Below are positions 2,956 through 29,351 of a DNA stretch of 37,865 nucleotides, piece by piece. The notes beneath the pieces are model-generated. The model was not told the origin of the DNA. It did not search any database and was given only the letters and a program-made list of their open reading frames with translations. The DNA is taken from contig PNOB01000002.1 of assembly GCA_013824585.1 (NCBI GenBank), positions 1-37,865 on the forward strand. The letters run 5' to 3'. A program made the translations under genes and the position numbers. Each line of letters opens with the position of its first letter. The stretch's first letter is position 1. This DNA is from Desulfobacterium sp. (GTDB lineage: Bacteria; Desulfobacterota; Desulfobacteria; Desulfobacterales; SURF-7).

Positions 2956-3010
2956 ACGTAAATCTTTCACAATGAATATTGTGACACTATCCCGGACAGG
3001 AAGTCAATAC

Positions 3011-3766
3011 ATGAAATCGAAACAAAAAATGGAAAATAGCCATTCCTTTTCAGATGGTAAACTGCTTCAGTTGATGACGATTTCTCTTTTTATCATTTTG
3101 CTTGTTTTTTTTATTCTGCTGAATTCAATCGCTGTTAGAAATGAAAAAAAAGTGGTTGCTGCCATTGGATCACTTCTCGGGAGTTTTGGTCAAAAAACCG
3201 GTGGATATTCGGATATTGACGGAACCGGTGAAAAAAATCTGATCCTCTCCATAAACACCTACACCGGAGGAATTGACTTCTCCGACATCCTTGTTAACGA
3301 CCCAATGCTTTCGCAACAAATAAAAATTCTTTCTGCCCCGGGAGGCAGTCTTGTCCGGATATCGGCAGACACCTTGTTTACCAATTTTGAAACAACCATC
3401 AACCCTTCCGGGTATCGGTTCCTGGATCGGATCATCAGGGCGATACAGAATAATAATTATCCAGTCGAGATTTCAAGCCATACCGATAACATTCCGATCA
3501 TCAGAAACGAAGAAAAATCAAATCAGGAAGTCTCTGCCATGCGTGCACTCCATATTTTTCAATATGTAACGGAAACCAAAAACATTTCAATTGATCGAAT
3601 CACTGCTTTTGGCTGGGGAGAATACCAGCCCGCTTATTCGAATCGAACACTGGAAACCAGAAAATTGAACAACAGGATCGATATCCTTTTTGTTCACAAA
3701 CCAAAGAAGCAAAAGCCAAAAAGCGGATTTATTTTTAAAGATTTCTTTTTTCGGTCATTTGAGTAA
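3011..3766 (+). CDS. MotB-like stator/OmpA-domain paralog lacking the canonical channel Asp
   Basis: 251 aa from ATG 3011 (GGAAG upstream). The track ORF starts at GTG 2942, overlapping the motA stop, so the start is uncertain. One TM (LLQLMTISLFIILLVFFILL) where Gln sits at the position of the MotB Asp. OmpA-like C-terminus: EISSHTDN...SNQEVSAMRALH...NNRIDILF. Confidence 0.7.
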   Translation: MKSKQKMENSHSFSDGKLLQLMTISLFIILLVFFILLNSIAVRNEKKVVAAIGSLLGSFGQKTGGYSDIDGTGEKNLILSINTYTGGIDFSDILVNDPMLSQQIKILSAPGGSLVRISADTLFTNFETTINPSGYRFLDRIIRAIQNNNYPVEISSHTDNIPIIRNEEKSNQEVSAMRALHIFQYVTETKNISIDRITAFGWGEYQPAYSNRTLETRKLNNRIDILFVHKPKKQKPKSGFIFKDFFFRSFE

Positions 3767-3781
3767 GGAAACACAATAATC

Positions 3782-4528
3782 ATGCCATCATCGAAAACAC
3801 CAAAAAGAATTGACTCTCCAAAAATAAATTCGGATTTATGGATGCTCACCTTTGGTGACCTGGTTATGCTTCTCCTTACCTTTTTTGTTTTGCTTTTGAG
3901 CATGAAATCCATGGACAAAAAAGATCTGAGAGAATTATTTCCAAATCCTTCTCTCTGGGGCGGTCCCCTGAAATATTCGGAAAACGGGTTAACCGGAAAT
4001 ACCACGGATTTTTATGGTGACAATAAAAGCTCAATTTTGGTGGAAAACAAAGATGCCCTGAAACAAATCTTTACGATGATGAAAGAGATTCAAACATCTC
4101 TTCCGGAAAAAGATGTGGTTAATCGTTTTGAAAAATCGATCCTCATTGAGGATGATCCCAAAGGAGTCGTGATATCATTCCAGACAGAACAATTATTCGA
4201 ACCGGGTGAAGCGACCATCAACCCATCCAAAATCGATTTCCTTACTGCTGCAGGAGAATTGTTGAAGAAGACATCAAACAACATTCTGATAATGGGACAT
4301 GCAAGCAGCATTCAACCTCAAAAAGCTGCATTGAAATCAAGTTGGGATCTCTCCCTCTATCGGGCACTGCACGTTCTGTATTATTTAACCGCAAACTTTG
4401 AAATGTTGGAAAATAGACTCGCCGTGGGAGGATTTGGAGATAAAAAACCCAAATTTCCTGTTACGGAAGTAGAGAACCAAAAAACAAATGATCGGATTGA
4501 ATTTATTCTCATGAAAGCAACAGAATGA
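3782..4528 (+). CDS. motB: Flagellar stator protein MotB
   Basis: 248 aa. Canonical WMLTFGDLVMLLLTFFVLLL TM motif with the conserved Asp. OmpA-like C-terminus (SWDLSLYRALHV...NDRIEFIL), but GHASS where OmpA-like domains usually have GHTD. AAGGAA Shine-Dalgarno upstream. Confidence 0.85.
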   Translation: MPSSKTPKRIDSPKINSDLWMLTFGDLVMLLLTFFVLLLSMKSMDKKDLRELFPNPSLWGGPLKYSENGLTGNTTDFYGDNKSSILVENKDALKQIFTMMKEIQTSLPEKDVVNRFEKSILIEDDPKGVVISFQTEQLFEPGEATINPSKIDFLTAAGELLKKTSNNILIMGHASSIQPQKAALKSSWDLSLYRALHVLYYLTANFEMLENRLAVGGFGDKKPKFPVTEVENQKTNDRIEFILMKATE

Positions 4529-4624: not shown

Positions 4625-5134
4625 ATGGCTGAAAAAGAAATCAAGATCGAAGAGAAATCGGGAAAAAAAAGGTTGCCCCCACTGAAATGGATCATTGCGG
4701 GAATTGTCGGGGTGGCAATCCTGTCCGGAGGAATACTCGGCTATGTTTTACTGAAAAAGCCGACACACGAAACTCCTCCAAAAACACCTACCCATGAAAG
4801 TGTCAGCAAGGGCGATACCTCTAAAAACGATTTGTCTCAAACTTTTCCATTGGAAAAATTTGTGGTAAACCTGAATGACCCGGGAGGGAAACAATATCTG
4901 CATATAACCATTGAACTGGAGTCAACAGTCAATGGTTTTGCAGAAGAGCTCAACTCAAAAATGCCTCAAATCAAGGATGCGATCCTGATCATCCTCAGCA
5001 GCAAATCACTTTCAGACGTCCAGGGTATGGAAGGAAAAATAACATTACGAAAAGAGCTGATTATTGAAATCAATAAAATTATGAGTATGACCAAAATCCG
5101 CAATCTATATTTTACGGAATTTGTCATCCAGTAA
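4625..5134 (+). CDS. fliL: Flagellar basal-body-associated protein FliL
   Basis: 169 aa with GGAGG Shine-Dalgarno and a single N-terminal TM. FliL core: FVVNLNDPGGKQYLHITIELE...PQIKDAILIILSS...IRNLYFTEFVIQ. Confidence 0.85.
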   Translation: MAEKEIKIEEKSGKKRLPPLKWIIAGIVGVAILSGGILGYVLLKKPTHETPPKTPTHESVSKGDTSKNDLSQTFPLEKFVVNLNDPGGKQYLHITIELESTVNGFAEELNSKMPQIKDAILIILSSKSLSDVQGMEGKITLRKELIIEINKIMSMTKIRNLYFTEFVIQ

Positions 5135-5225: not shown

Positions 5226-6203
5226 ATGAGTGAAATCCTATCGCAAGAAGAGGTGGACAGTCTATTATCTGGTTTAAGCGCCGGAAAAATCGAGACTGAA
5301 TCAGATAAAGCCTCGAAGGAGAAGAAAACCGACCTGTATGATTTTGCCAGTCAGGAAAGGGTTATCCGTGGAAGAATGCCTACCTTTGAGGTGATCAACG
5401 AGCGATTTGCCCGTGAAATCAGGACAACCATGTCATCCATGCTTCATAAAACCGTGGATATCAGTGCAGAAGCAATGGAAACAATGAAATTTGCCGATTT
5501 CATCCGATCGCTCCCCGTCCCAACCAGTCTTCACCTTTTCCGGATGGATCCGCTTCGGGGACATGCCCTGATGGTCCTCGAAACCCAACTGGTCTTTAAT
5601 CTGATCGATACTTTCTTCGGAGGAAGGGCAACCGGACAAGCAAAAATTGAAGGCAGAGATTTTACGACCATCGAAGAGACCATGGTAAAAAAAGTTGTAA
5701 TCGCTTGTTTAAAGGACCTTGAAGAAGCCTGGGAACCGGTTGAGCCGATTAAAGCCGTTTTTGTAAAATCAGAGGTGAACCCGCAATTTGCAGCCATTGT
5801 TCTGCCTTCTGATTTGGTTATTGTCACGAAGTTCGAAATCGAACTGGAACAATCTGCCGGAATGTTTATTGTTTGTCTCCCCTATGCCATGCTGGAACCG
5901 CTCCGAAGTACTCTCACTGCAGGATTTCAGGCTGAAACTCTGGATATCGATCATGCCTGGCAGAAACGGTTACGAGAAATCATTCTGGATTCAAAAGTAG
6001 ACGTCAGTGTGCAACTTGGAACCGTCCAGATCAATGGAGAACGGCTTATCCATATGAAGAAAGGGGATATCATTCAGCTAGACCAGGATGCTGACAGCCC
6101 ACTGATCGGAATCGTGGAAGGCTTCCCCAAACTGGAAGGATATGCCGGCATCCAGAGAGGATTTCAGGCATTTCGAGTTGTAAAACAGATACCTTTAGAA
6201 TGA
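5226..6203 (+). CDS. fliM: Flagellar motor switch protein FliM
   Basis: 325 aa. N-terminal MSEILSQEEVDSLL is the CheY-P docking (EIDAL-type) motif. FliM middle domain and C-terminal SpoA-like domain are present. Sits in the fliL-fliM-fliN order. Confidence 0.92.
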   Translation: MSEILSQEEVDSLLSGLSAGKIETESDKASKEKKTDLYDFASQERVIRGRMPTFEVINERFAREIRTTMSSMLHKTVDISAEAMETMKFADFIRSLPVPTSLHLFRMDPLRGHALMVLETQLVFNLIDTFFGGRATGQAKIEGRDFTTIEETMVKKVVIACLKDLEEAWEPVEPIKAVFVKSEVNPQFAAIVLPSDLVIVTKFEIELEQSAGMFIVCLPYAMLEPLRSTLTAGFQAETLDIDHAWQKRLREIILDSKVDVSVQLGTVQINGERLIHMKKGDIIQLDQDADSPLIGIVEGFPKLEGYAGIQRGFQAFRVVKQIPLE

Positions 6204-10125: not shown

Positions 10126-12225
10126 ATGAAAAACGAAATCATCAAAACACTGAAGGACCTCGTAAAAGACTCATCAGACATGGCAATGGTGGCTGCCGTG
10201 ATTGGTATCCTCTGCGCAATGCTGTTACCACTCCATCCGGTAATACTGGATCTTTTATTGGCGCTGAACATAACCATCGCGATCATTATCCTCATCACAA
10301 CCATGTATACGATTTCACCATTGGAATTTTCAATTTTTCCATCTGTCCTGCTGGTGATCACCCTGTTCCGCCTTGCACTGAATGTTGCCTCAACCCGTCT
10401 GATTCTTCTGCATGGCAGTGAAGGAGAACTGGCGGCAGGAGCCATTATCAAATCCTTTGGCAGTTTTGTTGTCGGAGGCAATTATGTCATCGGAATGATC
10501 ATCTTTGTCATTCTGGTCTTGATTAATTTTATTGTTATCACCAAAGGTTCCGGCCGGATCGCTGAAGTTGCCGCCCGGTTTACCCTGGATGGAATGCCCG
10601 GCAAACAAATGGCCATTGACGCGGATTTAAATGCCGGCATTATTGATGAAAACGAAGCCCGTGAACGGAGAAAAATGATTGCAAAAGAGTCGGAATTCCA
10701 CGGTGCAATGGATGGTGCTAGCAAGTTTGTGCGCGGGGATGCCATTGCCGGAATCATTATCACTGCAATCAATATTATCGGCGGATTTATAATTGGTGTG
10801 TTTCAACAAGACATGAGCATGATTGATGCAGCAAAAAACTACACCCTGCTTACGGTTGGTGATGGTCTTGTTACCCAGATCCCGGCGCTCATTATCTCCA
10901 CCTCTGCCGGTCTCCTCGTATCCCGGGCAGCATCAGAAGATCGAATGGGAAAAGAATTTTTAAAACATATTTTTTCCACCCCAAATCCAATATACATTGG
11001 AGCGATTATCGTCTTCATGCTCGGAATGGTTCCCGGATTACCGGCCTTTCCCTTTATGACTCTCTCAATGATCCTCATTGGAACGGTTTACTATTATCAC
11101 AATGTATCAGGGAAAAAGAAGAAAGAAGCGCTGCCTGAAGAGGCTGGAAAAGAAAAAACCACACCTACTGGACCCGAAGAGGTTGAACACTTATTAACCC
11201 TTGATGCAATGGAACTGGAGGTTGGTTATGGATTGATACCTCTGGTTGACAGTGAACAGACCGGTGATCTTTTGGGTAGAATTCGAGCCATTCGAAGACA
11301 GTTTGCAACCGAGATTGGAATCATCATTCCGCCGATTCATATCCGTGATAACCTCAAATTAAAGCCTTCTGAATATCGCCTGCTGATTAAAGGTGTCCAG
11401 ATGGCAGGTGCTGAACTTATGGTAAATCATCTCCTGGCCATGGACCCCGGTAATGTTACCCGGAAGATAGAAGGAATTCCCACAACAGAACCTGCATTCA
11501 ACCTTCCTGCATTATGGATTCCGCCGGAAAGGGAGGAGGATGCCAAATTTAATGGATATACCGTTGTTGACAACTCTACGGTTATTGCTACCCATCTTAC
11601 GGAAGTAATCCGGAATAATGCATCAGAACTTCTGGGAAGGCAGGAAGTTCAACATCTTCTTGATAACCTGGCCAAAACGTATCCAAAAGCGGTTGAGGAG
11701 CTGGTTCCGGCTCAACTTCCCCTTGGCATTCTTCAAAAAGTATTACAGAACCTTTTACGAGAAAGAGTATCCGTCCGGGACTTGTTAACGATTGTCGAAG
11801 TGCTGGCGGATTATGCTCCAAAGAGCAAGGATCCGGATCTGCTGACAGAATATGTAAGGCAAAAATTGGCCAGATCCATGCTGAGCCCCTATGTTCAGGA
11901 TGAAGGTGTGCTTCCTGTTATCACTGTTGATCAGGAAGTGGAAAATGTCCTTTCTAAGTCCATACAGCATACGGAACATGGATCATACCTTGCTGCAGAA
12001 CCCAAAATCGTGGATTCAATTGTAAGTTCCATTAAAGAGGAGATCGAAAAAATTATGGCGATCAGCATTCAGCCGATCATTCTCTGTTCTCCTGTATTGA
12101 GGCGTCACCTGAGAAAACTTGTAGAACAATTTGCGCCATCTGTATTTGTTTTTTCGCATGCTGAAATTCAGCAGAACATTCATGTTAAATCAACCGGTAA
12201 GGTAATGTTACGACATGGTCGTTAG
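10126..12225 (+). CDS. flhA: Flagellar export gate protein FlhA
   Basis: 699 aa FHIPEP-family protein with AGGAG Shine-Dalgarno. Conserved motifs: GGNYVIGMIIF, RFTLDGMPGKQMAIDADL, VRGDAIAGIIIT. Large cytoplasmic C-domain. Confidence 0.95.
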   Translation: MKNEIIKTLKDLVKDSSDMAMVAAVIGILCAMLLPLHPVILDLLLALNITIAIIILITTMYTISPLEFSIFPSVLLVITLFRLALNVASTRLILLHGSEGELAAGAIIKSFGSFVVGGNYVIGMIIFVILVLINFIVITKGSGRIAEVAARFTLDGMPGKQMAIDADLNAGIIDENEARERRKMIAKESEFHGAMDGASKFVRGDAIAGIIITAINIIGGFIIGVFQQDMSMIDAAKNYTLLTVGDGLVTQIPALIISTSAGLLVSRAASEDRMGKEFLKHIFSTPNPIYIGAIIVFMLGMVPGLPAFPFMTLSMILIGTVYYYHNVSGKKKKEALPEEAGKEKTTPTGPEEVEHLLTLDAMELEVGYGLIPLVDSEQTGDLLGRIRAIRRQFATEIGIIIPPIHIRDNLKLKPSEYRLLIKGVQMAGAELMVNHLLAMDPGNVTRKIEGIPTTEPAFNLPALWIPPEREEDAKFNGYTVVDNSTVIATHLTEVIRNNASELLGRQEVQHLLDNLAKTYPKAVEELVPAQLPLGILQKVLQNLLRERVSVRDLLTIVEVLADYAPKSKDPDLLTEYVRQKLARSMLSPYVQDEGVLPVITVDQEVENVLSKSIQHTEHGSYLAAEPKIVDSIVSSIKEEIEKIMAISIQPIILCSPVLRRHLRKLVEQFAPSVFVFSHAEIQQNIHVKSTGKVMLRHGR

Positions 12226-13306
12226 AAAATATCAAACAAAAAGTATCCAGGAAGGGGTCAGTAAAATCAAAAAAGAACTGGGCCCGGATGCGATGATATT
12301 GTCTACAAAATGTATTCGAAAAAACACCGTTGATCCTTACGGAAATGATCGATTTGAAATTACCGCGATTCCAGGTCAGTCTGCGGAGGAAAGTTATCCA
12401 AAAAATACAAAAACCATCCGTGAGGAAATTGCAAGCATAAAAGAAGTGCTGTTTCTGCTTGCTCAGCCAAATGGTCTCCCTGAAGCATTTCAAATCTGCC
12501 CGGACAGTTTCAAGATATATTCCAGCCTAATCCGATCCGGAATCTCTGAGAAACGGGTCAACCATTTTTTCCACAAAGTGTTCCAAAATCCGGCCAATCA
12601 AAATCCGGAGAATGTTGAAATTGCCAAACAGATTTACAAATCTGTTTTTGATTCCATTACAGTATCCAACCCATTTCAAACAAATGATGATCCAAAACCT
12701 TCCGGAACGCCAAAATTTGCCGTTCTTATCGGTCCGACCGGTGTTGGTAAAACCACTACCATTGCCAAACTCGCTGCCGATCTTTGTTTACAACAAAGAA
12801 AAAAGGTTGGACTCATTTCTGTTGATAATTATCGGATTGGTGCGGTTGAACAACTGAAAACTTACGCATCCATCATCGGGATTCCCTGTCTGACTGCATT
12901 TTCCAGAGAAGATATAACGGCTGCAATTCACAAACTCAAAACCAGGGATTTTGTTCTGGTGGATACAGCAGGGCATAGCCATCTGGATAAGGAAAGAATG
13001 GCCGAACTTGTCTCTCTTCTTGGTGAAAAATTTTCAGGCTCCTGCCATCTGGTTTTAAGTGCAACAACCAAACAACCGGATATGAAAGATGCTGTTAAAT
13101 ACTTTTCCAGCTTGAACCCGCAAACATACATATTTACAAAAATCGATGAAACCAGACAGCGGGGTGGAATCCTTGACCAGGTTCTTGATTATGCGCTTCC
13201 GATCTCCTTTGTGACAACCGGCCAGAAAGTACCGGAAGACATTATCGTTGCAACAAAAAGAAATATTTCCAGGCTGATATTAAACCGCAGCCGGTATTTA
13301 TCTTAG
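12215..13306 (+). CDS. flhF: Flagellar SRP-type GTPase FlhF
   Basis: 363 aa with an 11-nt overlap with flhA. N-terminus MVVRKYQTKSIQEGVSKIKKELGPDAMILS. G1 motif GPTGVGKTTTIAKLA; DTAGHS; TKIDET. Confidence 0.92.
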   Translation: MVVRKYQTKSIQEGVSKIKKELGPDAMILSTKCIRKNTVDPYGNDRFEITAIPGQSAEESYPKNTKTIREEIASIKEVLFLLAQPNGLPEAFQICPDSFKIYSSLIRSGISEKRVNHFFHKVFQNPANQNPENVEIAKQIYKSVFDSITVSNPFQTNDDPKPSGTPKFAVLIGPTGVGKTTTIAKLAADLCLQQRKKVGLISVDNYRIGAVEQLKTYASIIGIPCLTAFSREDITAAIHKLKTRDFVLVDTAGHSHLDKERMAELVSLLGEKFSGSCHLVLSATTKQPDMKDAVKYFSSLNPQTYIFTKIDETRQRGGILDQVLDYALPISFVTTGQKVPEDIIVATKRNISRLILNRSRYLS

Positions 13307-13330
13307 AATAAAGAAATAGGGAGATAAAAA

Positions 13331-14257
13331 TTGGATCAGGCAAACCGTTTACGTGAAATCATAAAAACCGAAATTCACCAGCAAGAAAAAAAAGCAAGTT
13401 TAAAACCACATCCGCTATCCCAAGGGCTCACCTTTCCAAGGGTTATCGCTGTGACCAGCGGGAAGGGAGGGGTAGGAAAAACCAATATCGTTGGCAACCT
13501 TGCCATTGCCTTTGCCCGATTAGGCAAAAAAGTTATTGTGCTGGATGCAGATCTCGGGCTTGCCAATATTGACATATTATTCAGGATTCATCCCCGTTAC
13601 CATATGGGACACGTGATCAACGGTGAAAAAGAACTATCCGAAGTCATGGCAGACGGACCTGAGGGAATCCGAATCATTCCGGCTGGATCGGGCTTGACAG
13701 ACTTTACTCATCTTACCGAAGGACAGAAACTGAACATCCTGAGCGAATTTGAATCGCTGGACGAATTGGTTGATATCTTTCTCATCGACACAGGGGCCGG
13801 GATCTCTTCCAACGTAATCTATTTTAATTTAGCTGCTGATGAATGTATTATTGTGGCAACCGACGAACCAACCTCTATTACGGATGCCTATGCAATGATT
13901 AAAGTATTGGCTACCCAACATGGAATGAATTATTTCAAAATATTGATCAACATGGTCAAGAATGAAATGCAGGCCAAGATGGTTTATCATACGCTCAGCA
14001 AATCTGTCGAACGTTTCATCAATGATGTGGTTCTTGAGTATATCGGCTTCCTGCCGACAGATCACCTGCTGAAACAGGCACTGATGAACCGCAGTACCGT
14101 TATTGAAATGTACCCGTCTGCTCCATCCAGCACCTGTTTCCAAAATCTTGCCGATGACCTTCTGAAATCTCCGGCCAGATTAAGTGCGGAAGGAAATATA
14201 AAATTCTTTTTAAAACGTTTTATTGATTACAAAACAGCATCTGGAATGGCCCTCTGA
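13331..14257 (+). CDS. flhG: MinD/ParA-like flagellar number regulator FlhG (FleN/YlxH)
   Basis: 308 aa with a TTG start. The N-terminal M-DQANRLR matches the DQAxxLR FlhF-activating motif, which supports this start. Deviant Walker A SGKGGVGKTN. C-terminal amphipathic helix GNIKFFLKRFIDY. Confidence 0.9.
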   Translation: MDQANRLREIIKTEIHQQEKKASLKPHPLSQGLTFPRVIAVTSGKGGVGKTNIVGNLAIAFARLGKKVIVLDADLGLANIDILFRIHPRYHMGHVINGEKELSEVMADGPEGIRIIPAGSGLTDFTHLTEGQKLNILSEFESLDELVDIFLIDTGAGISSNVIYFNLAADECIIVATDEPTSITDAYAMIKVLATQHGMNYFKILINMVKNEMQAKMVYHTLSKSVERFINDVVLEYIGFLPTDHLLKQALMNRSTVIEMYPSAPSSTCFQNLADDLLKSPARLSAEGNIKFFLKRFIDYKTASGMAL

Positions 14258-14276
14258 TCCAATAATAAATTGAACA

Positions 14277-15044
14277 ATGATCGAACACTATTCAAAAATA
14301 GTCTCTACAGACAAAAATCAAAGGCTTACCCCTAAAGAACGGGAAGAACTGATTATCAGACATGCGCCTTTGGTGAAACGTATTGCTGCCAAAATGGCCG
14401 CGAGGCTGCCGTCTTCGGTTGTTTTTGATGAACTGATCAGCGCCGGGTGTCTTGGATTAATCGATGCGATTGATAAATTTGACCCTGAACGGGATGTCAG
14501 CCTGGAAACCTATGCTGAATTCCGGATCAGGGGTTCAATACTGGATGAACTCAGAAGTCTGGACTGGTATTCCAGATCCATGAGAAAAAAAATTCGGGAT
14601 ATTGAAAAAGCAGTCACTTCTGTTGAAACCCGTGAAGGCCATCTGGCAGAAGATTGGGAAATCGCCCAAGAACTCGGGATTGATCTGGAATCATATTTTA
14701 AACAGCTTTCCAATATTCATGGCGCTGCGCTGCTCAGCATGGATGAGTTTATTAAAAATAAAAACAATCAATCCTCTACCCAGAATACATTTCAAGAAAA
14801 AATCAAAAGCAAGGATGATCCATCCCGAAGACTATTCCGGGAAGAGTTAAAACTGGAAGTGGCGAAAGCAATCCAGACCCTTTCGGAAAAAGAACAGCTC
14901 GTGATATCTTTGTATTATCAGGATGAATTGACACTGAACGAAATCGGTACGATACTGAAATTGACCGAATCAAGGATCTGCCAAATCCACACAAGCGCCT
15001 TGATCAAGTTAAAAAACAGGCTTCGACTGTATTATCAGGAGTAA
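14277..15044 (+). CDS. fliA: Flagellar sigma factor FliA (sigma-28)
   Basis: 255 aa with sigma-70 regions 2-4 (LISAGCLGLIDAIDKFDPERDVSLETYAEFRIRGSILDELR; LSEKEQLVISLYYQDELTLNEIGTILKLTESRICQIH). Sits after flhF-flhG. Confidence 0.9.
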   Translation: MIEHYSKIVSTDKNQRLTPKEREELIIRHAPLVKRIAAKMAARLPSSVVFDELISAGCLGLIDAIDKFDPERDVSLETYAEFRIRGSILDELRSLDWYSRSMRKKIRDIEKAVTSVETREGHLAEDWEIAQELGIDLESYFKQLSNIHGAALLSMDEFIKNKNNQSSTQNTFQEKIKSKDDPSRRLFREELKLEVAKAIQTLSEKEQLVISLYYQDELTLNEIGTILKLTESRICQIHTSALIKLKNRLRLYYQE

Positions 15045-15094
15045 CTCGTATTGATTGTTCCACGTCATAACAAATAGTTGTCAGAGCGATAACG

Positions 15095-17005
15095 ATGGCT
15101 GAAACCAAAAATCAACAAGTTGAGTCAGACTCTATCTCAGAGAATGATATTGACCAATTACTCCAATCGTATAGCAGCCAAGAAACAGAAGGAAAGGAGG
15201 AAATCGACAGCTTACTGAGAAATATTTCCCGTGAAGAGAGCGCCATTAATCAGGATGATGCGGAAGAGAATAACAATCTGATCGATGAAATATCTCCAAG
15301 TGATATCCGTAATCTTTTAAATATATCTCTTGACGATATTTCCGTGGATGATCTGGAAGCGGAATTGCTTCAAGCCCAAAACCCGCGTGATTCTGATGAT
15401 TCTCTTTTTGAAGATCAAAAATCCAATACCCATCTTTTTGAAAAAAATTCACAGATTTTTGCCGTAGAAAAGGATCAAGATGAAGCAAAACCTGAACCTG
15501 CAAACGAATCCAATGACACTGGTATAATTTCCCAGGACGATATTGAAAAACTCCTGACCGGTGAAATATCTGTCGATTCAAAATCAACAGAAATCAAATC
15601 AAAACCTGAAACCGAATCCAATGACTCAGGCGTAATTTCCCAGGACGATATTGAAAAACTCCTGACCGGTGAAATATCTGTCGATTCAAAATCAACAGAA
15701 ATCAAATCAAAACCTGAAACCGAATCCAATGACTCAGGCGTAATTTCCCAGGACGATATTGAAAAACTCCTGGCCGGTGAAATCGGCGCTGATGATTCAA
15801 TTCCCATTGAAAATAAAATTCAAGGCTCTGATGAACAGCCTCAAGAAGAGGAGCGATCTCTTTTCATTTCTCAGAATGAACTGAACCTGCTTTTGGAGGA
15901 ATATGACAATAAAACTTCGAATACAAATGCGAAAACAGAAAAAGAAATCATGGCTTCATTGCCTGAAGAATCAGGGATAGAGGATCCAAATAATTTTGTT
16001 TCACAGAGTGACCTTGATATGCTTTTAGCTGAAGATTCCGATAAGAAGAATGAGGATATTGCAGATCCTGACGAAGGACTCATTTCCCAGGAAGACATTG
16101 ATAAGCTGTTACAAGGCAAGGATGACAATCCGGAAGAAGTGGAAGATGACACATCCAGCCTGATTTCACAACAAGACATCGATACCCTGTTAAAAGGAGC
16201 CGCTGAAAATGATTCTTCAGATGAACTGGCTGAAACAGGGCCGGTAGATAAAGACGATAATGAATCCGGACTTGTCTCTCAGGAAGATATTGATTCGCTT
16301 TTGCGGGATGCAACCGATCAGGACGATGAAGAAAATCATACCGAACCCCAGATTGAGCTTGACCGGGTTGTCTTAGAGGAAGCCGATGATTCAAAAATTA
16401 TTCCGGATGAACCTCCCCCACCGGAAGTCAAAACAACTGAAAGAAAAAAATGGTATCGATCCAGACTTGTTATCGCCTGTTCTGCCGGGGCAATCGTTTT
16501 GCTGATTTCTTCTGTTGCACTCTATTTCTTTTTATCCAGCGATCATGCAGGAACAGGGAAGCCGGAAATCGCATCCATTGAGTCTGAATCAAAAAAAACA
16601 GATCCGGCTGTGGAAGAAGCCATCCCGTCCGGTCTATCGATTGATTTTAATGGATTTGTTGTTCTTGATCCGCGCAACAGAGGTGATATTGCTTACCTTA
16701 AGGCAGATATCCAGATTAACTGTAACAGCAATGCTACCGTAAATACAATTGCCTCTCGAAAACCATTTTTCCGATTCTTGATCTATGACATTTTTCAAAA
16801 AAACCTGGAAAAACTGGAGTTGCCTGAAAAAGAAAAAAATCCTCCTTCTGAAAAGAAAAAGGAGGATTCATCCCAATCGGAAAATCACAATGTCCCTTTG
16901 CTTGATAAAACAAAATTACAAATTGCGATTCGGCAGTCTTTGGAAAATGCATTATCGGAAAAAGGCATAAAGGAGATTATTCTGAAAAATATCGATCTGT
17001 TTTAA
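15095..17005 (+). CDS. Acidic multi-EIDAL-motif protein with one TM and a C-terminal FliL-like domain
   Basis: 636 aa. About 11-12 copies of [ILV]SQx[DE][IL][DN]x[LM]L lie in the first ~440 aa. Then RKKWYRSR plus a TM (LVIACSAGAIVLLISSVALYFFL, about nt 16466-16537). The C-terminal ~150 aa align by eye with the FliL encoded at 4625 (FVVLDPRNRGDIAYLKADIQIN vs FVVNLNDPGGKQYLHITIELE; IKEIILKNIDLF vs IRNLYFTEFVIQ). Confidence 0.8.
   Translation: MAETKNQQVESDSISENDIDQLLQSYSSQETEGKEEIDSLLRNISREESAINQDDAEENNNLIDEISPSDIRNLLNISLDDISVDDLEAELLQAQNPRDSDDSLFEDQKSNTHLFEKNSQIFAVEKDQDEAKPEPANESNDTGIISQDDIEKLLTGEISVDSKSTEIKSKPETESNDSGVISQDDIEKLLTGEISVDSKSTEIKSKPETESNDSGVISQDDIEKLLAGEIGADDSIPIENKIQGSDEQPQEEERSLFISQNELNLLLEEYDNKTSNTNAKTEKEIMASLPEESGIEDPNNFVSQSDLDMLLAEDSDKKNEDIADPDEGLISQEDIDKLLQGKDDNPEEVEDDTSSLISQQDIDTLLKGAAENDSSDELAETGPVDKDDNESGLVSQEDIDSLLRDATDQDDEENHTEPQIELDRVVLEEADDSKIIPDEPPPPEVKTTERKKWYRSRLVIACSAGAIVLLISSVALYFFLSSDHAGTGKPEIASIESESKKTDPAVEEAIPSGLSIDFNGFVVLDPRNRGDIAYLKADIQINCNSNATVNTIASRKPFFRFLIYDIFQKNLEKLELPEKEKNPPSEKKKEDSSQSENHNVPLLDKTKLQIAIRQSLENALSEKGIKEIILKNIDLF
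15506..15800 (+). repeat. 108-bp in-frame tandem repeat, about 2.6 copies
   Basis: Copies start at 15506, 15614 and 15722 (GAATCCAATGAC...). Copies 1 and 2 are identical apart from about 5 nt near the start. Copy 3 is identical to copy 2 for about 55 nt and then diverges. Each encodes ESND(T/S)G(I/V)ISQDDIEKLLTGEISVDSKSTEIKSKPET. Confidence 0.9.
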
Positions 17006-17027
17006 TTTACCATTTCACAGGCCTTTT

Positions 17028-17339
17028 ATGACCACTATATCAAATGTCAATATTGTTGTTCAGCAAGGCGATATGGCCAGAGATGCTTCTCAGCAAGCCA
17101 GGCCCCAATCCATGGACACCAGCCAATTGACGCCCGCCGAGCAGCAGGAAAAAGACCGGACCGCACGCTCCTCTGTTCCTGGATCAGAGGAATCGGGTGC
17201 CATTGTTCCGGATAAAGAGCAGCGTGAAAAAGAAAAAAAGAAAAAAAGGGAATCCTTAAACAAGGAAAAAAAAGTGACTGAAAAAGTAACGAAAAAAGAT
17301 CCGGATTCTCCTGGCAGACTGCTGGATACAATCGCATAG
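17028..17339 (+). CDS. Hypothetical small Lys/Glu-rich protein
   Basis: 103 aa (MTTISNVNIVVQQGDMARDASQQ...EKEKKKKRESLNKEKKVTEKVTKKD...), co-directional in a tight gene array. No family recognised. The low-complexity charged C-half makes coding status less certain. Confidence 0.45.
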   Translation: MTTISNVNIVVQQGDMARDASQQARPQSMDTSQLTPAEQQEKDRTARSSVPGSEESGAIVPDKEQREKEKKKKRESLNKEKKVTEKVTKKDPDSPGRLLDTIA

Positions 17340-17373
17340 CTTTTTAACAACCTGTTTTTAAGAAAGTCATTCA

Positions 17374-17862
17374 ATGGTTTTTGAAGATATGAAAATTGAA
17401 CTATGGGTTATCTTCCAGATTGCTGTTGATTTTATCCTGGTTGTTCTGATTTTCTGGCTACTGAAAAATATGAAAATCCGTTTGCAACAGGACATATCCA
17501 AGGATACCTCTGAAAAAGTGATGGGGATGATCGAGCCTCTTCTTACACAAGCGAATTATATTGCAACCACTTTCGGAAAACAGCTCAGGAAAAAAAATCA
17601 TCTCATCAACAAGTTGAATGAAAAACTGGATTCCCGAATCATCAGCCTCAATCTACTGCTGAACCGGACAGAATCTCTGATTGGAAAAGGAAATGCAGAT
17701 TCCGAATCCCAATCCATCCATGTATATGATCAACAGGAGTCCATTATCCAGCTATATATTGCCGGAAAAAGTCCATCCGAAATTGCAAAAACCTTATCCC
17801 TTCCCAAGGGAGAAGTGGATCTGGTTCTTGACCTGAAAAAAAAACTGCTCAACATTCAATAA
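17374..17862 (+). CDS. Hypothetical membrane-anchored coiled-coil protein with C-terminal HTH-like segment (possibly DUF2802-like)
   Basis: 162 aa with an N-terminal TM (LWVIFQIAVDFILVVLIFWLL) and a central helical region. C-terminus ESIIQLYIAGKSPSEIAKTLSLPKGEVDLVLDLKK resembles a LuxR/sigma region-4-type helix-turn-helix. The DUF2802 resemblance is from memory only. Confidence 0.55.
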   Translation: MVFEDMKIELWVIFQIAVDFILVVLIFWLLKNMKIRLQQDISKDTSEKVMGMIEPLLTQANYIATTFGKQLRKKNHLINKLNEKLDSRIISLNLLLNRTESLIGKGNADSESQSIHVYDQQESIIQLYIAGKSPSEIAKTLSLPKGEVDLVLDLKKKLLNIQ

Positions 17863-17893
17863 CCATGTTATGTTTTAAAAAACTGATACTTTT

Positions 17894-18994
17894 ATGGTTT
17901 CTGACATATCCAAAATTTTTCTTTCCTCTTCAAAGCTTTCCATTGTAAAAGATAACCAGTCTCTCCATACCCTTCCTCCTCTTCAAAAAGGCCAGCTCAT
18001 TCATGCAAAGGTTGTCAAAACACTTTCCGGTCGCCAATCACAACTTGTCATACTTGGGAAGACCCTCCTTGCACAAACCCATACCCCATTGAAAACCGGA
18101 GAAACAATTCTTCTGCGGGTTGTTCAATCCGCCCCTACACCCGTTTTTAAAATCGAACAATCAGAGTCTCCTCCGATAAAAGTACTCTATGACGCTGTGA
18201 AGTCTCTGGGTCGAACCGGCCCTTTCAAGCATATTGAAAGCCTTATCAGGCAAAACATGGCTTCCGACACTTCTGGAAGTTCTGCAACATCTTCTAAAGC
18301 AATCAGCCATTTTGTCCGTCTGATACAAAACACGGCTTTACAATCCGAACAAACCGACCCGGGCCTGTTAAATCGTTTTATTGAAAACAGTGGACTGAAA
18401 TGGGAAAACAAACTGCGTTCCTTTTTTTCCAATCCTGAATCGGTCTTGTTTGAAAAAGCGCAGGATCTTATCAACCATGATATGAAAGCCCTGGCTTTGA
18501 TTCCCGACCCGGAACACATCACACATCAATCCCTGCATTCTTTTTCCCAAGATATTGAAAACCTTCAGTTGCTTAACCAGAATTTATTTGAAGAGTCCGG
18601 CCGGCTTATATTTCATCTGCCGATATTGTTTGACGGAACCCTCACGTTTGGGCAGATTTTCATTGATCTGAATCATGCACAAGACTCTAAACCCCATGAT
18701 GAACGAACGCTTCGCGTATCTTTTTTACTGGAAATGACCCGACTGGGTGAATTTCTTGCTGATTTCTCGATCTTGAACAAACAAATCAATGGATCATTTG
18801 GTGTGGCAACTCATGAAATTCAAATGATGATCCAAGAAAACCTTCCTGAACTGGAAACAAAATTAAAATCTCACGGATTTATTGTTTATCCGATAGCCTG
18901 TCGCCTTCTCACCCCGGAAACCATAGCCGGAACCTCTTTGATCGAAAAATCCATAACCAGCTCTGAACAAGGCATGGTGAATATCCTGATATGA
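17894..18994 (+). CDS. FliK-like flagellar hook-length control protein
   Basis: 366 aa. The C-terminal segment LRVSFLLEMTRLGEFLADFSILNKQINGSFGVATHEIQMMIQENLPELETKLKSHGFIV fits the FliK C-terminal (Flg_hook) pattern. ATGA-coupled to the FlhB C-domain paralog. Confidence 0.55.
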   Translation: MVSDISKIFLSSSKLSIVKDNQSLHTLPPLQKGQLIHAKVVKTLSGRQSQLVILGKTLLAQTHTPLKTGETILLRVVQSAPTPVFKIEQSESPPIKVLYDAVKSLGRTGPFKHIESLIRQNMASDTSGSSATSSKAISHFVRLIQNTALQSEQTDPGLLNRFIENSGLKWENKLRSFFSNPESVLFEKAQDLINHDMKALALIPDPEHITHQSLHSFSQDIENLQLLNQNLFEESGRLIFHLPILFDGTLTFGQIFIDLNHAQDSKPHDERTLRVSFLLEMTRLGEFLADFSILNKQINGSFGVATHEIQMMIQENLPELETKLKSHGFIVYPIACRLLTPETIAGTSLIEKSITSSEQGMVNILI

Positions 18995-19263
18995 AAAAAA
19001 AACTAAAAAAAGCCGTTGCCCTTAAATATGATCCTCTGAAGAGCAAGGCACCCAAGGTGACCGCAAAAGGAAAAGGCGTTGTTGCCGATAAAATCATTCA
19101 ATTGGCAAAAGAACACGGGATACCGGTTAAAGATGATCCGGATCTGGTTGAGGTGTTATCCGGTCTGGAACTGGAAGCTGAAATACCGCCAAGCATTTAT
19201 ATCGTCGTTGCAGAGCTTCTTGCTTTCGCCTATTCCATGAATGGGAAAAAACGACCGGCGTAG
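18991..19263 (+). CDS. FlhB C-terminal-domain paralog (stand-alone, soluble)
   Basis: 90 aa. KKAVALKYDPLKSKAPKVTAKGKGVVADKIIQLAKEHGIPVKDDPDLVEVL...VVAELLAFAYSM aligns with FlhB residues directly after NPTH (HLAIAIRYDASKMNVPKVVAKGAGLIAERIK...AVAELLAYVYKL). It has no TM domain and no NPTH. Confidence 0.85.
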   Translation: MKKKLKKAVALKYDPLKSKAPKVTAKGKGVVADKIIQLAKEHGIPVKDDPDLVEVLSGLELEAEIPPSIYIVVAELLAFAYSMNGKKRPA

Positions 19264-19397
19264 GTATTTTTTTCCTTCCTGCTTTCCCGCATCAGACGAT
19301 TCCTATCCAACCTTTTTTCAAGGCCAATTCAAGCAAATACAGGCCAAATCATAACGGACAGACAAGTATCTCTGCGAATGCAGTTAGGACAATCAAC

Positions 19398-19413
19398 TGG
19401 CATTCATATTGCA
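19398..19413 (+). promoter_or_regulatory. Sigma-54 (-24/-12) promoter upstream of flgF
   Basis: TGGCATTCATATTGCA has exact GG/GC spacing and lies 26 nt upstream of the flgF ATG at 19439. The track TTG start (19409) falls inside this element. Confidence 0.65.
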
Positions 19414-19438
19414 CCACCATACGGAAAAGGAGAATCCA

Positions 19439-20119
19439 ATGATATTACAAATGACCCGAGCCGTACAAGGCGGCCTTCGACAGGAAAGAAAACTGGATAT
19501 CATTGCCAATCACCTGGCCAATTCGGACACCAATGGATTTAAAGGCGATATACTGGCTTTTGATGACATGTTTAAAGCAAACCTTGTGACCGATCACAGT
19601 CAAGGGGATTTGAAAGTCACCGACAACAAACTGGATCTGGCCATCAACGGCAACGGCTTCTTTAAAGTTCAAACCCAGCTGGGAATACAATACACCCGGG
19701 ACGGTAACCTAACCGTGGATCAAAATGGAACCCTGGTCACCCAAAACGGAGATCCGGTTCTTGGGAATAATGCTCCCATTGTTATTCAGGGAACGGAAAT
19801 CCACATCTCCCAGGCAGGAGAAGTGATTGTGGATGGAGATGCAATCGGAAACCTGGACGTCGTAACCTTCGAAGACCTGACACGCCTCAAAAAAACCGAT
19901 AAGTCCATGTTTCGCTATGAAGGAGATGCCGGAGCAGATGAACAGATTCCGCAAAATGTTTCTGTAGAACAGGGCTCTCTTGAAAAACCCAATATTTCCA
20001 CTACGATTGAAATGGTGGAAATGATTCAGACACACAGAATGTATGAGGCATATCAGAAAATGATCATGACTTTTGATGAAATCGATTCAAAAGCCATTCT
20101 TGAACTGGGAAGACCGTAA
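19439..20119 (+). CDS. flgF: Flagellar basal-body rod protein FlgF
   Basis: 226 aa from ATG 19439 (AAGGAG 7 nt upstream). N-terminal rod motif IIANHLANSDTNGFK; C-terminal HRMYEAYQKMIMTFDE. Confidence 0.88.
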   Translation: MILQMTRAVQGGLRQERKLDIIANHLANSDTNGFKGDILAFDDMFKANLVTDHSQGDLKVTDNKLDLAINGNGFFKVQTQLGIQYTRDGNLTVDQNGTLVTQNGDPVLGNNAPIVIQGTEIHISQAGEVIVDGDAIGNLDVVTFEDLTRLKKTDKSMFRYEGDAGADEQIPQNVSVEQGSLEKPNISTTIEMVEMIQTHRMYEAYQKMIMTFDEIDSKAILELGRP

Positions 20120-24798: not shown

Positions 24799-27700
24799 AT
24801 GTCAGGCTTGTCATCCGTACTCAATACGGCAAAGCTTGCATTGAACGCACAGCAGCTTGGCCTGGCTGTTGCCGGCCATAATATTGCCAATGTCAATACT
24901 ACTGCTTACAGCCGTCAGAATATTGAATTTTCAGCTACCGATCCGGTGAAATTTGGTGGACAGCTTCTGGGCAGCGGTGTTCAAATTGAAACCATTCAGA
25001 GAATAAACAACAGATTCATTGAAGAGCGTCTCATTAATTTGAAATCAGACCTGGCTGCAAATGAAGAAAGCGCTGCCTATATTCAAATCCTGGAAAGCAA
25101 TTTCAGTGAAAATTCCGAAACCAGTATCAGCCATATCATCTCTGAATTCTGGAACTCATGGCACGATTTGTCAAACAACCCTATTGGAGCTTCAGAGCGT
25201 AAACTGGTTTATGAAACCGGTGTACTGGCAGCGGATCGGATTAACACGTTACATGAAGATCTGACACAAATGGAAATCGATTTAAGCCGAGAAGTATCAA
25301 GCGCTCTTCCGGAAATAAACCGGTTATCCGCTGATCTTGCAGCGCTGAATTCCGATATTGTCGAAAGTGAAGCAGTCGATACGGCAAACGACTTGAGGGA
25401 CCGGAGAAATTCCCTGGTAACCGATTTGTCCAAACTCATCGGGATCAAAACATTTGAACAACCCAATGGATCACTGGTTATTACAACCGGGACCGGGTAT
25501 ACACTCGTAAATGGTATTGATTCCTTTGATCTGACATCATCAGAGGGTGAAATACAATATGAGACTCCCTATGGAGGAACCATTGCCATCACCGATCAAA
25601 TTACCGGAGGGTCCATCGGAGGCTGGCTTACGATACAAAAGGAAGTGATTCCGAAATTTCAAACAGAACTGGATGTCATGGCACACGAATTGATCTGGGC
25701 CGTCAACCTGCAGCACAGCCAGGGTGTCGGAGAGGAATATTTTGCAATGCCGGTTACCGGTACATATGCAACCGATGATAGCGGTCTTTTATCCACCCTG
25801 AGCTTTGGCAACAAGATTGATTATTCCAAAAACTTTGAGATGTGGATTAAGGACAGCAGCGCTTTGACACCCACTTACACCAATCTGGAGGTCGATATGG
25901 GAATATCGACAGCGTCGATCTCCAACTGGACAGGTGTAAATCCAGATCAAGACAGTGTTACCTATGACTTCACGGTTACCAGCAGCGGCACTGTAAATGC
26001 GGATGCAAACTTTGCCATTACTGACGGTCCTGGAATAGGTGTCATTCAAACAGGGACGAATGTAGGAACAGCGCTGAATGGGGCGATCGCAGCCCAGACC
26101 CTTACTATTTCCAATGCCAGCGGAAACCAGACAATCCAAATCGCTGACGGAGGTGATGCCGAGCGCTCCGCAGCCTCCATTGCCGAAGCTTTGACGAATC
26201 TTACCGGCATAAACGCAACTGCTGGAAAAAACACAGCAACCATCGATATCACCAATATCCTTCCTCCTGCTGCCACAAGTGCACATGAACACGATACTGT
26301 CCGTTTTACACTTTACACCGGAAACGATTCCGAGGTTGTTTCGTTCGAGGTTGGTGCGACTGCTGACACCACACGAAACAACTTTCTGAGTGCACTGAAC
26401 ACCTCAATACTGGCTTTAAACAGTGCGACCTCGGATCTTTCCATCGACTCCAGCCGGCTGATGTCCGATAATGTCATTATGTTTACCAGTGACAGCGGCG
26501 ATAACATCGGAATTGAAAATTTTAACGTTCTGGATCTGCCTATTGCAACACTGGATAACTTTCAGAACCTTGGGGTGAATACGGTCATTGCCGCAAGCAA
26601 TTTCACGAATCTATCCAATGGTGAAACCCTGACCTTTTCAATTACAACCGCGCAGGGCAGTGTAAACGTCAGCTATGTCATTACCGATGATACGAATCAG
26701 ACAACCCTTGCCGCTGATTTACAGGCTGCGCTTGCCGGGGCAGGTCTTGGCGCAATCGGGGTAGCGAGTCTTCAGGTTGGCGCCACCGTTCAGATCACCG
26801 GAAATGCCTCTGCCGGGTTTGTCGACTTTCAAGCCATTTCCACAGGATCGGGAACAGACGAATCATTCGACATCACCCCGGCAGCAGGCACAAGCAGATA
26901 TCCATCTCTGGGCGACAACACCCTCCTGTTTAATGGAACCGGTGATCGGTCACAATATGCAGGAAATAATGCTGTAAACATGACCATCAACGGTACAGAC
27001 AACATCACGATCGATCTCAGGCGGGTGGATACCACCAGTCAAAGTGAAGTGGCTAAGGCTTTTTATCGGGGTCTGGATACTCATGTGACCAATGCGGTTG
27101 TTACAAATACGGGAACGGCAGTAACCATAAGGTCTCTTGCCGAATCTGCTTCTGACTTTGCTTTTACTGCCGGAACGGAAACATCCGGAGTGAATGGATC
27201 TTTTGATATCTCAGTACCCAATGCACTGCCGCTTGCCGCAGACACCTTTACACTTGATGGTGCGGATACAGCTACATTTACAAGTGTTACGGAAACCGAT
27301 ACCATTATTTTTGATGGAGCGGTATTAACCGAGAGTGGTGGTGTTGGAGTGGACAGCGCTGTAAAAACCGGATTGGTGACCATCAATCTGGAGGATGGCT
27401 ACTCCATTCGATCCAGCGTAGCAGGTGCGGCCGGTGGATTGTTCAATATGGCAGCCGGAATTGATATAACCACTTCCGATGCGATTATAACTCTCGGAGG
27501 AGATGGAGGTTTTGAAAACTTCAATTCGGGCGATCTGATTGCCTTTCGTCTGGATGGAAATTATGTCAGTTTTCTTGTCGGAGCAACCTCGGATACGGAT
27601 ACGGAATTTGCCACCATTCTGGAAGGAGGGTTGATTGCAGCCGGATTGCCGGCCAGTATTTATTCCATCGTACGAACAGGATCAAGCGTAAGCATTTTAA

Positions 27701-29298: not shown

Positions 29299-29351
29299 GT
29301 AGACACTTCCAAAACGATTTGGGGTCGTCAAAAAGAAAGGTCATCAGCAAT

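Follow-up and report, generated by a model that had tools for sequence, protein, structure and literature searches.

In the textbook flagellar switch, each FliM subunit carries one docking peptide for phosphorylated CheY (CheY-P), and FliL surrounds MotB as a ring or an arc in the motors of Borrelia, H. pylori and C. jejuni. The docking peptide at the FliM N-terminus, the EIDAL motif, is the high-affinity CheY-P site; in S. putrefaciens it has also proved both necessary and sufficient for binding FlhG (bioRxiv 10.1101/2022.04.21.489128; PMC6946799; PMC12327844). The N-terminal 36 residues of FliY from G. thermodenitrificans likewise suffice for FlhG binding, independent of nucleotide. In this FlhG (GtFlhG), residues K177, R207 and F215 are reported to be essential for FliY_N binding (PMC12327844). 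HubP and FimV bring FlhG, along with further ParA/MinD-like ATPases, to the vicinity of the polar flagellum, and ZomB is a switching factor with a single transmembrane (TM) helix that is required for CheY-dependent reversal. Here we describe a gene at 15095-17005 (+) in a 37,865-nt stretch of a Desulfobacterium sp. genome (assembly GCA_013824585.1, contig PNOB01000002.1), which was analysed as a whole and is called the window below. Judged by profile and fold, its product is an inner-membrane FliL paralogue and a member of the FliL superfamily, and its N-terminal arm carries the EIDAL motif in tandem. The FliL fold and the EIDAL motif are known in themselves; what appears to be new is a FliL-type anchor with a tandem EIDAL arm.

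The open reading frame (ORF) starts with ATG and encodes 636 aa plus stop, as described in the original prediction, which had been made by a model from the DNA letters alone; every peptide named there was located by residue. In the strongly acidic N-terminal portion (residues 1-450), D and E make up 29% of the residues and the net charge is -95. This arm contains 10 canonical and 2 degenerate copies of the [LIV]SQ[DE][DE]ID.LL type, in agreement with the array of about 11-12 motifs that had been proposed. In fact, a loose regular expression of the FliM_N type matches at residues 14, 66, 145, 181, 217, 258, 302, 330, 357 and 394, and the degenerate copies start at residues 35 and 82. In 5000 composition-preserving shuffles of residues 1-450 the same expression gave a mean of 0.05 and a maximum of 3 matches, against the 10 observed. 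The spacing of the motifs is approximately 27-80 residues. FliM of the window begins MSEILSQEEVDSLLSG, and reading this sequence bears out that it opens with the same motif.

Three of the copies, all ISQDDIEKLL, are identical because they lie in a 108-bp tandem DNA repeat, which we read as the recent amplification of one motif-plus-linker unit. The unit tripled here is present in 3 or 4 copies in close relatives. The copy ISQNELNLLL is a position-specific variant that is kept in distant orthologues. In an AlphaFold2 (AF2) model of the full-length protein, helices are placed at residues 16-49, 68-75, 84-95, 147-154, 183-191, 219-226, 260-274, 304-311, 332-340, 359-367 and 396-408; the helix on each motif has predicted local distance difference test (pLDDT) values of 55-83 and the linkers are below 50. 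The model thus depicts a flexible tether with short predicted helices, like beads on a string. Minus-strand ORFs inside the gene (e.g. 15475-15807 and 15871-16179) were rejected as shadows of the repeats; they are without family support, compared with more than 250 homologues for the plus-strand protein.

A word-indexed search found 261 homologues of the window protein, and 114 of the best 120 share its architecture, namely the arm, one TM helix and a C-terminal domain of 130-160 aa. Moreover, phmmer over 1.84 billion representatives returned 128 clusters at E<=1e-3 and 66 at E<=1e-10, so that the family comprises about 130 clusters at 50% identity. We built a motif logo from 882 instances in 114 proteins, which reads: acidic run, L(50%)-[I54/V23/L18]-S85-Q87-[D63/E25]-D92-I93-D81-x-L95-[L69/M23]-x-G. 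The conserved positions are S (85%), Q (87%), D/E (88%), D (92%), I (93%), D (81%), L (95%) and L/M (92%). Unlike the motifs, the linkers between them are not conserved. The motifs are therefore kept in orthologues and are not low-complexity noise, a possibility that had been named at the outset as one that would undermine the prediction. The logo matches the N-terminus of the genome's own FliM, ILSQEEVDSLLSG. It is the FliM_N consensus and agrees with E. coli FliM, SILSQAEIDALLNG, including the hydrophobic and Asp positions that contact CheY.

The number of motif copies varies among homologues, a point that had been raised at the outset, from 4 to 18 per member with a median of 7-8, and their median spacing is 33 residues. 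The first motif starts at a median of residue 12 and lies within the first 25 residues in 86% of the members, which is FliM-like. Recent tandem duplications, defined as motif-plus-linker units at least 80% identical, were found in 32 of 172 members. The duplicated linkers are unrelated between lineages, so the units have been amplified repeatedly and independently. We count the range of 4-18 copies together with these independent duplications as evidence for selection on multivalency. A second linear motif, distinct from EIDAL and with the pattern xQV[IV]LE, precedes the TM helix by about 32 residues in 67% of 111 complete members.

Compared with the EIDAL peptide of FliM and FliY, the array motif shares the consensus [LIV]SQ[DE][DE]ID.LL.G with a preceding hydrophobic residue. 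It likewise lies on a tether predicted to be disordered, with a helix predicted on it in the window protein, and its first copy stands at the extreme N-terminus. The differences are three. First, model organisms have one EIDAL copy per subunit of the C-ring, whereas members of this family have 4-18. Second, the ‘A’ position of EIDAL varies freely in the arrays (A, S, K, R, Q, T). Third, the protein is a membrane protein and not a C-ring component, and no FliM, SPOA or CheC domain was found in it by Pfam.

The arm is followed by the basic patch RKKWYRSR and by one TM helix, exactly as had been predicted; residues 458-480 are the only strongly hydrophobic stretch of the protein. Across 111 members the 12 aa preceding the TM helix carry a net charge of +3.9, compared with -0.8 behind it. 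By the positive-inside rule, an N-in topology is predicted, with the arm in the cytoplasm and the C-terminal domain in the periplasm, and the FliL topology proposed earlier thus fits family-wide.

The C-terminal domain had been aligned by eye with the FliL encoded at 4625. A BLASTP comparison of the C-terminal 201 aa with this FliL gave nothing significant (E=12). We then took an alignment of 29 diverse family C-terminal regions (A1). Of these regions, 14 pass the Pfam FliL model individually (best 4.9e-8), and three members (P0012, P0016 and P0117) pass PF03748 at 26.8-29.6 bits over profile positions 8-100 of 103. Searched against the PDB, the A1 profile had only two significant matches, both FliL: 9hmf_O from the C. 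jejuni motor (E=9.3e-8, profile positions 10-167, from the TM helix through the end) and 7sgn_A from H. pylori (E=1.2e-6). 9hmf is one of the in-situ structures in which FliL surrounds MotB. Moreover, hhalign of A1 with the FliL of the window gave 94.9% probability (E=4.3e-8, 158 columns). An AF2 model of the C-terminal 191 aa has a pLDDT of 80.6, and its best PDB matches by Foldseek are FliL 7sgn, 9hmf_O and 6ahq (probability 1.00, TM-score on target 0.62-0.80); stomatin SPFH domains rank next. The relationship to FliL, visible solely at the level of profile and fold, is thus carried by the family profile, hhalign and the predicted fold, and to this extent the earlier assignment stands.

With described FliL proteins (PF03748; 7sgn of H. 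pylori, 6ahq of V. alginolyticus, 9hmf_O of C. jejuni) the window protein shares the N-terminal TM helix, the N-in topology and the SPFH-like domain, in addition to its profile and fold matches, and it is likewise encoded in a flagellar cluster. However, canonical FliL measures about 170 aa and its cytoplasmic tail is short, whereas the acidic arm of this protein alone takes up 450 aa and bears 10-12 docking motifs, and its subclade adds a 35-aa insertion in the FliL domain. Canonical FliL is encoded before fliM and this protein after fliA, and both coexist. Both loci that extend far enough to show the fliL region also have a canonical fliL upstream. Since canonical FliL and a FliM with a single motif co-occur with it, the protein is an extra FliL paralogue and not a replacement.

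In genome scans the taxa in which the gene was located all belong to Desulfobacterales. These scans used the single window protein, which found two close relatives only, plus the subfamily alignments A2 and A3. The taxa are Desulfobacula, Desulfobacter (D. vibrioformis DSM 8776, D. postgatei), Desulfospira joergensenii DSM 10085, Desulfotignum, Desulfamplus, Desulforapulum autotrophicum, Desulfoluna butyratoxydans, Desulfocicer vacuolatum, Desulfosudis oleivorans and Desulforegulaceae; look-up of the encoding contigs added Desulfatiferula olefinivorans. The closest relatives of the window protein, with 70-75% identity, are from Desulfosudis and Desulfocicer.

The gene had been placed behind flhF-flhG-fliA, which agrees with the annotation of the window, where all four genes lie on the same strand. 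We examined its neighbourhood in 75 distinct genes with flanks. fliA ends immediately upstream of the gene in 65 of 68 loci, a count that shows the position of this gene and not that every fliA precedes one, as the loci were located through the gene itself. flhG lies upstream in all 68 of the 68 loci. Downstream, a gene like orf162 of the window follows within 2.6 kb in 71 of 72 loci, and orf103 is detectable by tblastn in 37 of the 72, always between the gene and its FipA-like neighbour. The order flhF-flhG-fliA, the present gene, orf103 and orf162 is thus a fixed gene block. The architecture, the motif identity, its conservation, the dynamics of copy number and the gene context of this family are established.

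Both downstream partners were looked at separately. The 103-aa ORF (17028-17339, +) lies directly 3' of the gene, is K/E-rich with a conserved C-terminal end, and has no match in Pfam or NCBIfam. The 162-aa protein (17374-17862, +) has a TM helix at its N-terminus, then a coiled region, and DUF6115 at its C-terminus (35.3 bits, above the cut-off); DUF2802 matches weakly (E=0.011). In size, in architecture and in its location downstream of flhF-flhG-fliA it matches FipA, the FlhF-interaction partner of gammaproteobacteria (PMC11620751).

The intergenic gaps between fliA, the gene and the next two ORFs are 50, 22 and 34 bp. In a scan of 12000-19500, no plus-strand terminator-like site was found between these four genes, and promoter-like sites were fewer than in shuffles. 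The scan is at most compatible with co-transcription of the gene with fliA.

Several other described proteins resemble the present one in part. HubP and FimV are single-pass proteins with a very long, acidic, repeat-rich cytoplasmic region, as seen here. According to PMC12918733, however, they have an N-terminal periplasmic LysM domain, a C-terminal region in the cytoplasm and a FimV TPR domain, and the orientation of our protein is reversed. No LysM, TPR or FimV domain was found in it by Pfam; its periplasmic domain is FliL-like and its repeats are a defined FliM_N motif. We therefore rejected an identity with HubP/FimV, and the ‘FimV’ labels given to some members by JGI are without domain support. 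FliY of Firmicutes also joins the EIDAL peptide to another motor-associated module, but there the peptide is combined with a CheC-like phosphatase and a FliN domain in a soluble C-ring protein, whereas the present protein is membrane-anchored and lacks CheC and SPOA. MotF, a FliL paralogue of S. meliloti, and ZomB of Vibrio and Shewanella are accessory single-pass membrane proteins of the motor beside FliL. ZomB is defined by a C-terminal KKKW motif, and neither protein is reported with EIDAL motifs or an acidic repeat arm; it is by these descriptions that the two are set apart. Our literature searches found no paper on tandem EIDAL arrays or on a FliL-like protein with such an arm, and the database names of members are ‘hypothetical protein’, ‘FliL family protein’ or ‘FimV’. 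This agrees with the original prediction, in which the architecture was not recognised as a described family.

The motif array is also found in other protein architectures. First, it is attached to proteins of the switch: a genuine FliM with five N-terminal copies (Pfam FliM 2.8e-31; L117, ORF from 4989, +), a Planctomycetota FliN-domain protein with three copies (L124, ORF from 566, +) and, in a Firmicute-type operon, a CheC-domain protein that has five copies and whose gene follows fliM directly (P0210, L132 8001-9168). The last of these is cut by the contig end and is probably FliY. Arrays on FliM, on FliN and on a protein of the CheY-P phosphatase family tie the tandem motif to the switch and the CheY system. 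Second, uncharacterised non-FliL proteins carry from 3 to 17 or more copies, including P0200, the TPR protein P0134 and large soluble proteins of Verrucomicrobia with 9 to 17 or more (L101 ORF from 4260, L115, P0189). A Zn-ribbon/TM protein (P0204, L131 8001-10616) has about 14 motifs, a TM helix and a C-terminal domain; examined as a candidate for a second FliL-anchored lineage, it gave by hhalign only 60% probability over 39 columns, and its neighbourhood is non-flagellar. Third, a family of Clostridia (P0063, L008 8001-9509; P0034, P0084, P0088, P0115, P0118, P0153) combines a 140-aa N-terminal domain with 7-9 GGKMSQEDIEKLLA units; its array gene adjoins a GGDEF gene and spoVA genes, and there are no flagellar genes nearby.

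From these observations we infer where the protein would sit, which clients it may bind and what its physiological effect could be. The reading that we favour, at somewhat better than even expectation, is that of a motor-anchored multivalent docking scaffold for the partners of the FliM N-terminus. The original prediction had likewise suggested a multivalent scaffold or sink for CheY-P and/or FlhG, a proposal to which the tandem motifs on genuine FliM, FliN and CheC/FliY-type proteins lend indirect support. In this protein the short cytoplasmic N-tail of FliL is replaced by a predicted disordered, polyanionic arm of about 450 residues with 10-12 docking peptides of the FliM/FliY type. The FliL-like domain and the TM helix would bring the protein to the flagellar motor, beside the stator units, a placement suggested by the FliL rings and arcs around MotB. 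The arm might then hang over the outside of the C-ring, near the N-terminal tethers of FliM, and could serve as a multivalent platform on which the binding partners of the FliM N-terminus dock.

CheY-P is our first-choice client, at a little below even chances. The arm would in that case be a motor-proximal antenna or buffer that concentrates CheY-P beside the switch or competitively sequesters it there, and this capture could reshape switching sensitivity and kinetics. CheY-P is ranked first because arrays occur on FliM, FliN and CheC-type proteins, and because many weak, interchangeable and often duplicated sites suit the capture of a diffusible signal. FlhG, whose gene lies two genes upstream, is put second and only tentatively, for reasons of gene neighbourhood, the FipA-like neighbour and the analogy to HubP; the two clients are not mutually exclusive.

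Some observations weigh against the scaffold reading. No CheY gene is encoded within the window, and sequence alone does not tell CheY-P from FlhG as the client because both bind the same peptide. The resident FliM has Val where the arrays have Ile (EVD versus DID), so the arrays are not exact copies of its peptide. FliL-fold proteins need not all sit at the stator, and the non-flagellar arrays of Clostridia and Verrucomicrobia may mean that the motif has clients beyond the motor. The window protein itself has no match to PF03748 (gathering threshold 24.6 bits), and the best of the curated models, NCBIfam PRK05696, reaches 19.2 bits over the TM region where 179 would be needed. The Pfam miss is explained by the insertion of about 35 aa, which is confined to the window subclade and has low pLDDT. 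The significant match to a FliL model that had been expected thus fails for this one protein, a result overturned at the level of the family.

The best surviving alternative, which we nevertheless consider rather unlikely, is an FlhG-specific hub. The array would recruit many FlhG molecules (monomers or dimers) to an already built motor, and the local FlhG would shut off FlhF and/or flagellar transcription, giving one polar flagellum by assembly-coupled counting, in the manner of HubP/FimV plus FliM_N in Vibrio and Shewanella. The constant place of the gene after flhF-flhG-fliA and the FipA-like TM-coil-DUF6115 gene downstream speak for such a hub, although adjacency within a 35-kb all-flagellar superoperon is a weak sign of a specific partnership. 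The published sufficiency of EIDAL for FlhG binding and the use of long acidic repeat regions by the TM proteins HubP and FimV in recruiting FlhG point the same way, but arrays on a CheC-domain protein favour CheY-P as the client, and in V. alginolyticus no direct binding of FliM to FlhG was detected in vitro (bioRxiv 10.1101/2022.04.21.489128). The FlhG of the window is orthologous to FleN/FlhG (E=4e-68 against P. aeruginosa FleN) and keeps the equivalents of K177 and F215 of GtFlhG but has Thr at the position of R207. With two of the three FliY-binding residues kept, FlhG binding is possible and the comparison is not decisive.

Much less probable is an arm that has no specific client and works as a generic polyanionic disordered spacer, brush or condensate-forming region. 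Such an arm might keep material out or arrange it around the motor, or associate with itself; its amphipathic helices would serve self-interaction or membrane contact, and its likeness to FliM_N would have arisen by convergence only. The extreme acidity (about -0.28 net charge per residue), the long low-pLDDT linkers, the FimV labels, presumably given by JGI for the acidic repeats, and the arrays in proteins without flagellar context would all fit. Against this, 8 of 10 motif positions are 80-95% conserved while the linkers vary freely, the motif equals the FliM_N consensus position by position through the following x-G, its copies far exceed the number in shuffles, and the array is also attached to real FliM, FliN and CheC-type proteins. 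Least probable of all is a specialised FliL or MotF-type stator modulator whose arm touches the MotA cytoplasmic domain, FliG or the middle or FliN domains of FliM: FliL paralogues with separate motor roles do exist (e.g. S. meliloti MotF, PMC9541039), xQV[IV]LE is a second conserved motif with no known partner and the window encodes MotA plus two MotB-like proteins, but no motor component is known to bind the EIDAL peptide, and 4-18 interchangeable, often duplicated copies suit a diffusible ligand better than a fixed contact. The position-specific conservation, equal to that of FliM_N, makes both the generic spacer and the direct motor contact less likely.

The features of the gene and its main neighbours are compiled in Table 1.

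Table 1. Position of the gene, its product's domains and motifs, and related genes in the window.
Feature	Position	Strand	Basis or remark
Gene described here (acidic motif arm, TM helix, FliL-like domain)	15095-17005	+	ORF list, homologues, hydrophobicity, motif scan
Predicted cytoplasmic acidic arm, residues 1-449, predicted disordered, short helix per motif	15095-16441	+	composition, AF2
Motif 1 ISENDIDQLL, residues 14-23, near-N-terminal as in FliM	15134-15163	+	motif scan
Degenerate half-motif EEIDSLL, residues 35-41	15197-15217	+	motif scan
Motif ISPSDIRNLL, residues 66-75	15290-15319	+	motif scan
Degenerate motif ISVDDLEAELL, residues 82-92	15338-15370	+	motif scan
108-bp tandem DNA repeat, 2.7 copies, 96% identity	15495-15783	+	repeat search
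Motif ISQDDIEKLL, residues 145-154, repeat copy 1	15527-15556	+	motif scan, repeat search
Motif ISQDDIEKLL, residues 181-190, repeat copy 2	15635-15664	+	motif scan, repeat search
Motif ISQDDIEKLL, residues 217-226, repeat copy 3	15743-15772	+	motif scan, repeat search
Variant motif ISQNELNLLL, residues 258-267, EERSLF before	15866-15895	+	motif scan
Motif VSQSDLDMLL, residues 302-311	15998-16027	+	motif scan
Motif ISQEDIDKLL, residues 330-339	16082-16111	+	motif scan
Motif ISQQDIDTLL, residues 357-366	16163-16192	+	motif scan
Motif VSQEDIDSLL, residues 394-403	16274-16303	+	motif scan
Second linear motif DRVVLEE (family pattern xQV[IV]LE)	16361-16381	+	about 32 residues before TM helix
Basic juxtamembrane patch RKKWYRSR, residues 450-457	16442-16465	+	sequence, family charge
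Single TM helix, residues 458-480	16466-16534	+	hydrophobicity, AF2
FliL-like (SPFH-type) domain, predicted periplasmic, residues 513-636	16631-17002	+	profile, AF2, Foldseek
K/E/S-rich insertion of about 35 aa in FliL-like domain, residues 573-607	16811-16915	+	alignment, AF2
Canonical FliL, 169 aa, Pfam FliL 5e-26	4625-5134	+	Pfam
FliM, single N-terminal motif MSEILSQEEVDSLL	5226-6203	+	Pfam, sequence
flhF	12215-13306	+	upstream context, conserved synteny
flhG (MinD/FleN-like)	13331-14257	+	upstream context, conserved synteny
fliA	14277-15044	+	upstream context, conserved synteny
orf103 and orf162, conserved downstream partners	17028-17862	+	family scans, synteny

The whole window is a single long plus-strand flagellar cluster. 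It starts with motA, two MotB/OmpA-like genes, fliL, fliM, fliN, fliOPQR, flhB and flhA; continues with flhF, flhG, fliA, the gene described here, the 103-aa ORF, the 162-aa TM protein and a FliK-like protein; and ends with flgF, flgG, flgA, flgH, flgI, a rod-binding protein, flgN, FlgK, a flagellin-fold protein and fliW. motA and the two MotB-like genes occupy 2191-4528 (+). The first MotB-like gene (2942-3766, GTG start) has an OmpA domain only, with no match to the MotB plug, and the second (3782-4528) has both MotB_plug and OmpA. The hook-filament junction proteins at 24799-33530 (+) are unusually large. FlgK has 1499 aa (FlgK_D1 plus rod C-terminal domain), and a related locus (L001) encodes a FlgK of 1408 aa; the other, of 1403 aa, has flagellin N and C domains and is presumably FlgL. 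At the window edge, outside the flagellar cluster, a 384-aa ORF (36686-37840, -) matches the Receptor L domain (PF01030, 1.3e-10) and LRR_EndoS.

Should the scaffold reading be true, the textbook model of the switch would be challenged: 4-18 extra copies of the docking peptide per molecule would alter the number and geometry of CheY-P/FlhG sites at the motor, and tens to hundreds of extra FliM_N sites would surround the switch. Between the chemoreceptor array and the C-ring there would then be a previously unknown layer of signal processing, by local enrichment, buffering or competition, which would surprise motor specialists and bears on the tuning of motor ultrasensitivity and adaptation and on flagellar counting in polar flagellates. 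The hypothesis is made testable by cultured carriers, namely Desulfobacter vibrioformis, Desulfospira joergensenii, Desulfoluna butyratoxydans, Desulfatiferula olefinivorans and Desulfocicer vacuolatum, and the arm is amenable to heterologous hosts. More generally, FliL-type anchors could display cytoplasmic signalling modules, and, to judge by the arrays on FliM, FliN, FliY-like and uncharacterised proteins in Planctomycetota, Verrucomicrobia and Clostridia, EIDAL may be used as a short linear motif more widely than has been recognised. We put forward, as a tentative proposal, that the motors of Desulfobacterales may have a dedicated membrane-anchored CheY-P antenna or sponge, and that tandem EIDAL may be a portable multivalent CheY/FlhG-capture module, joined in evolution to FliM, FliN, FliY, FliL-like and wholly uncharacterised proteins in several phyla.

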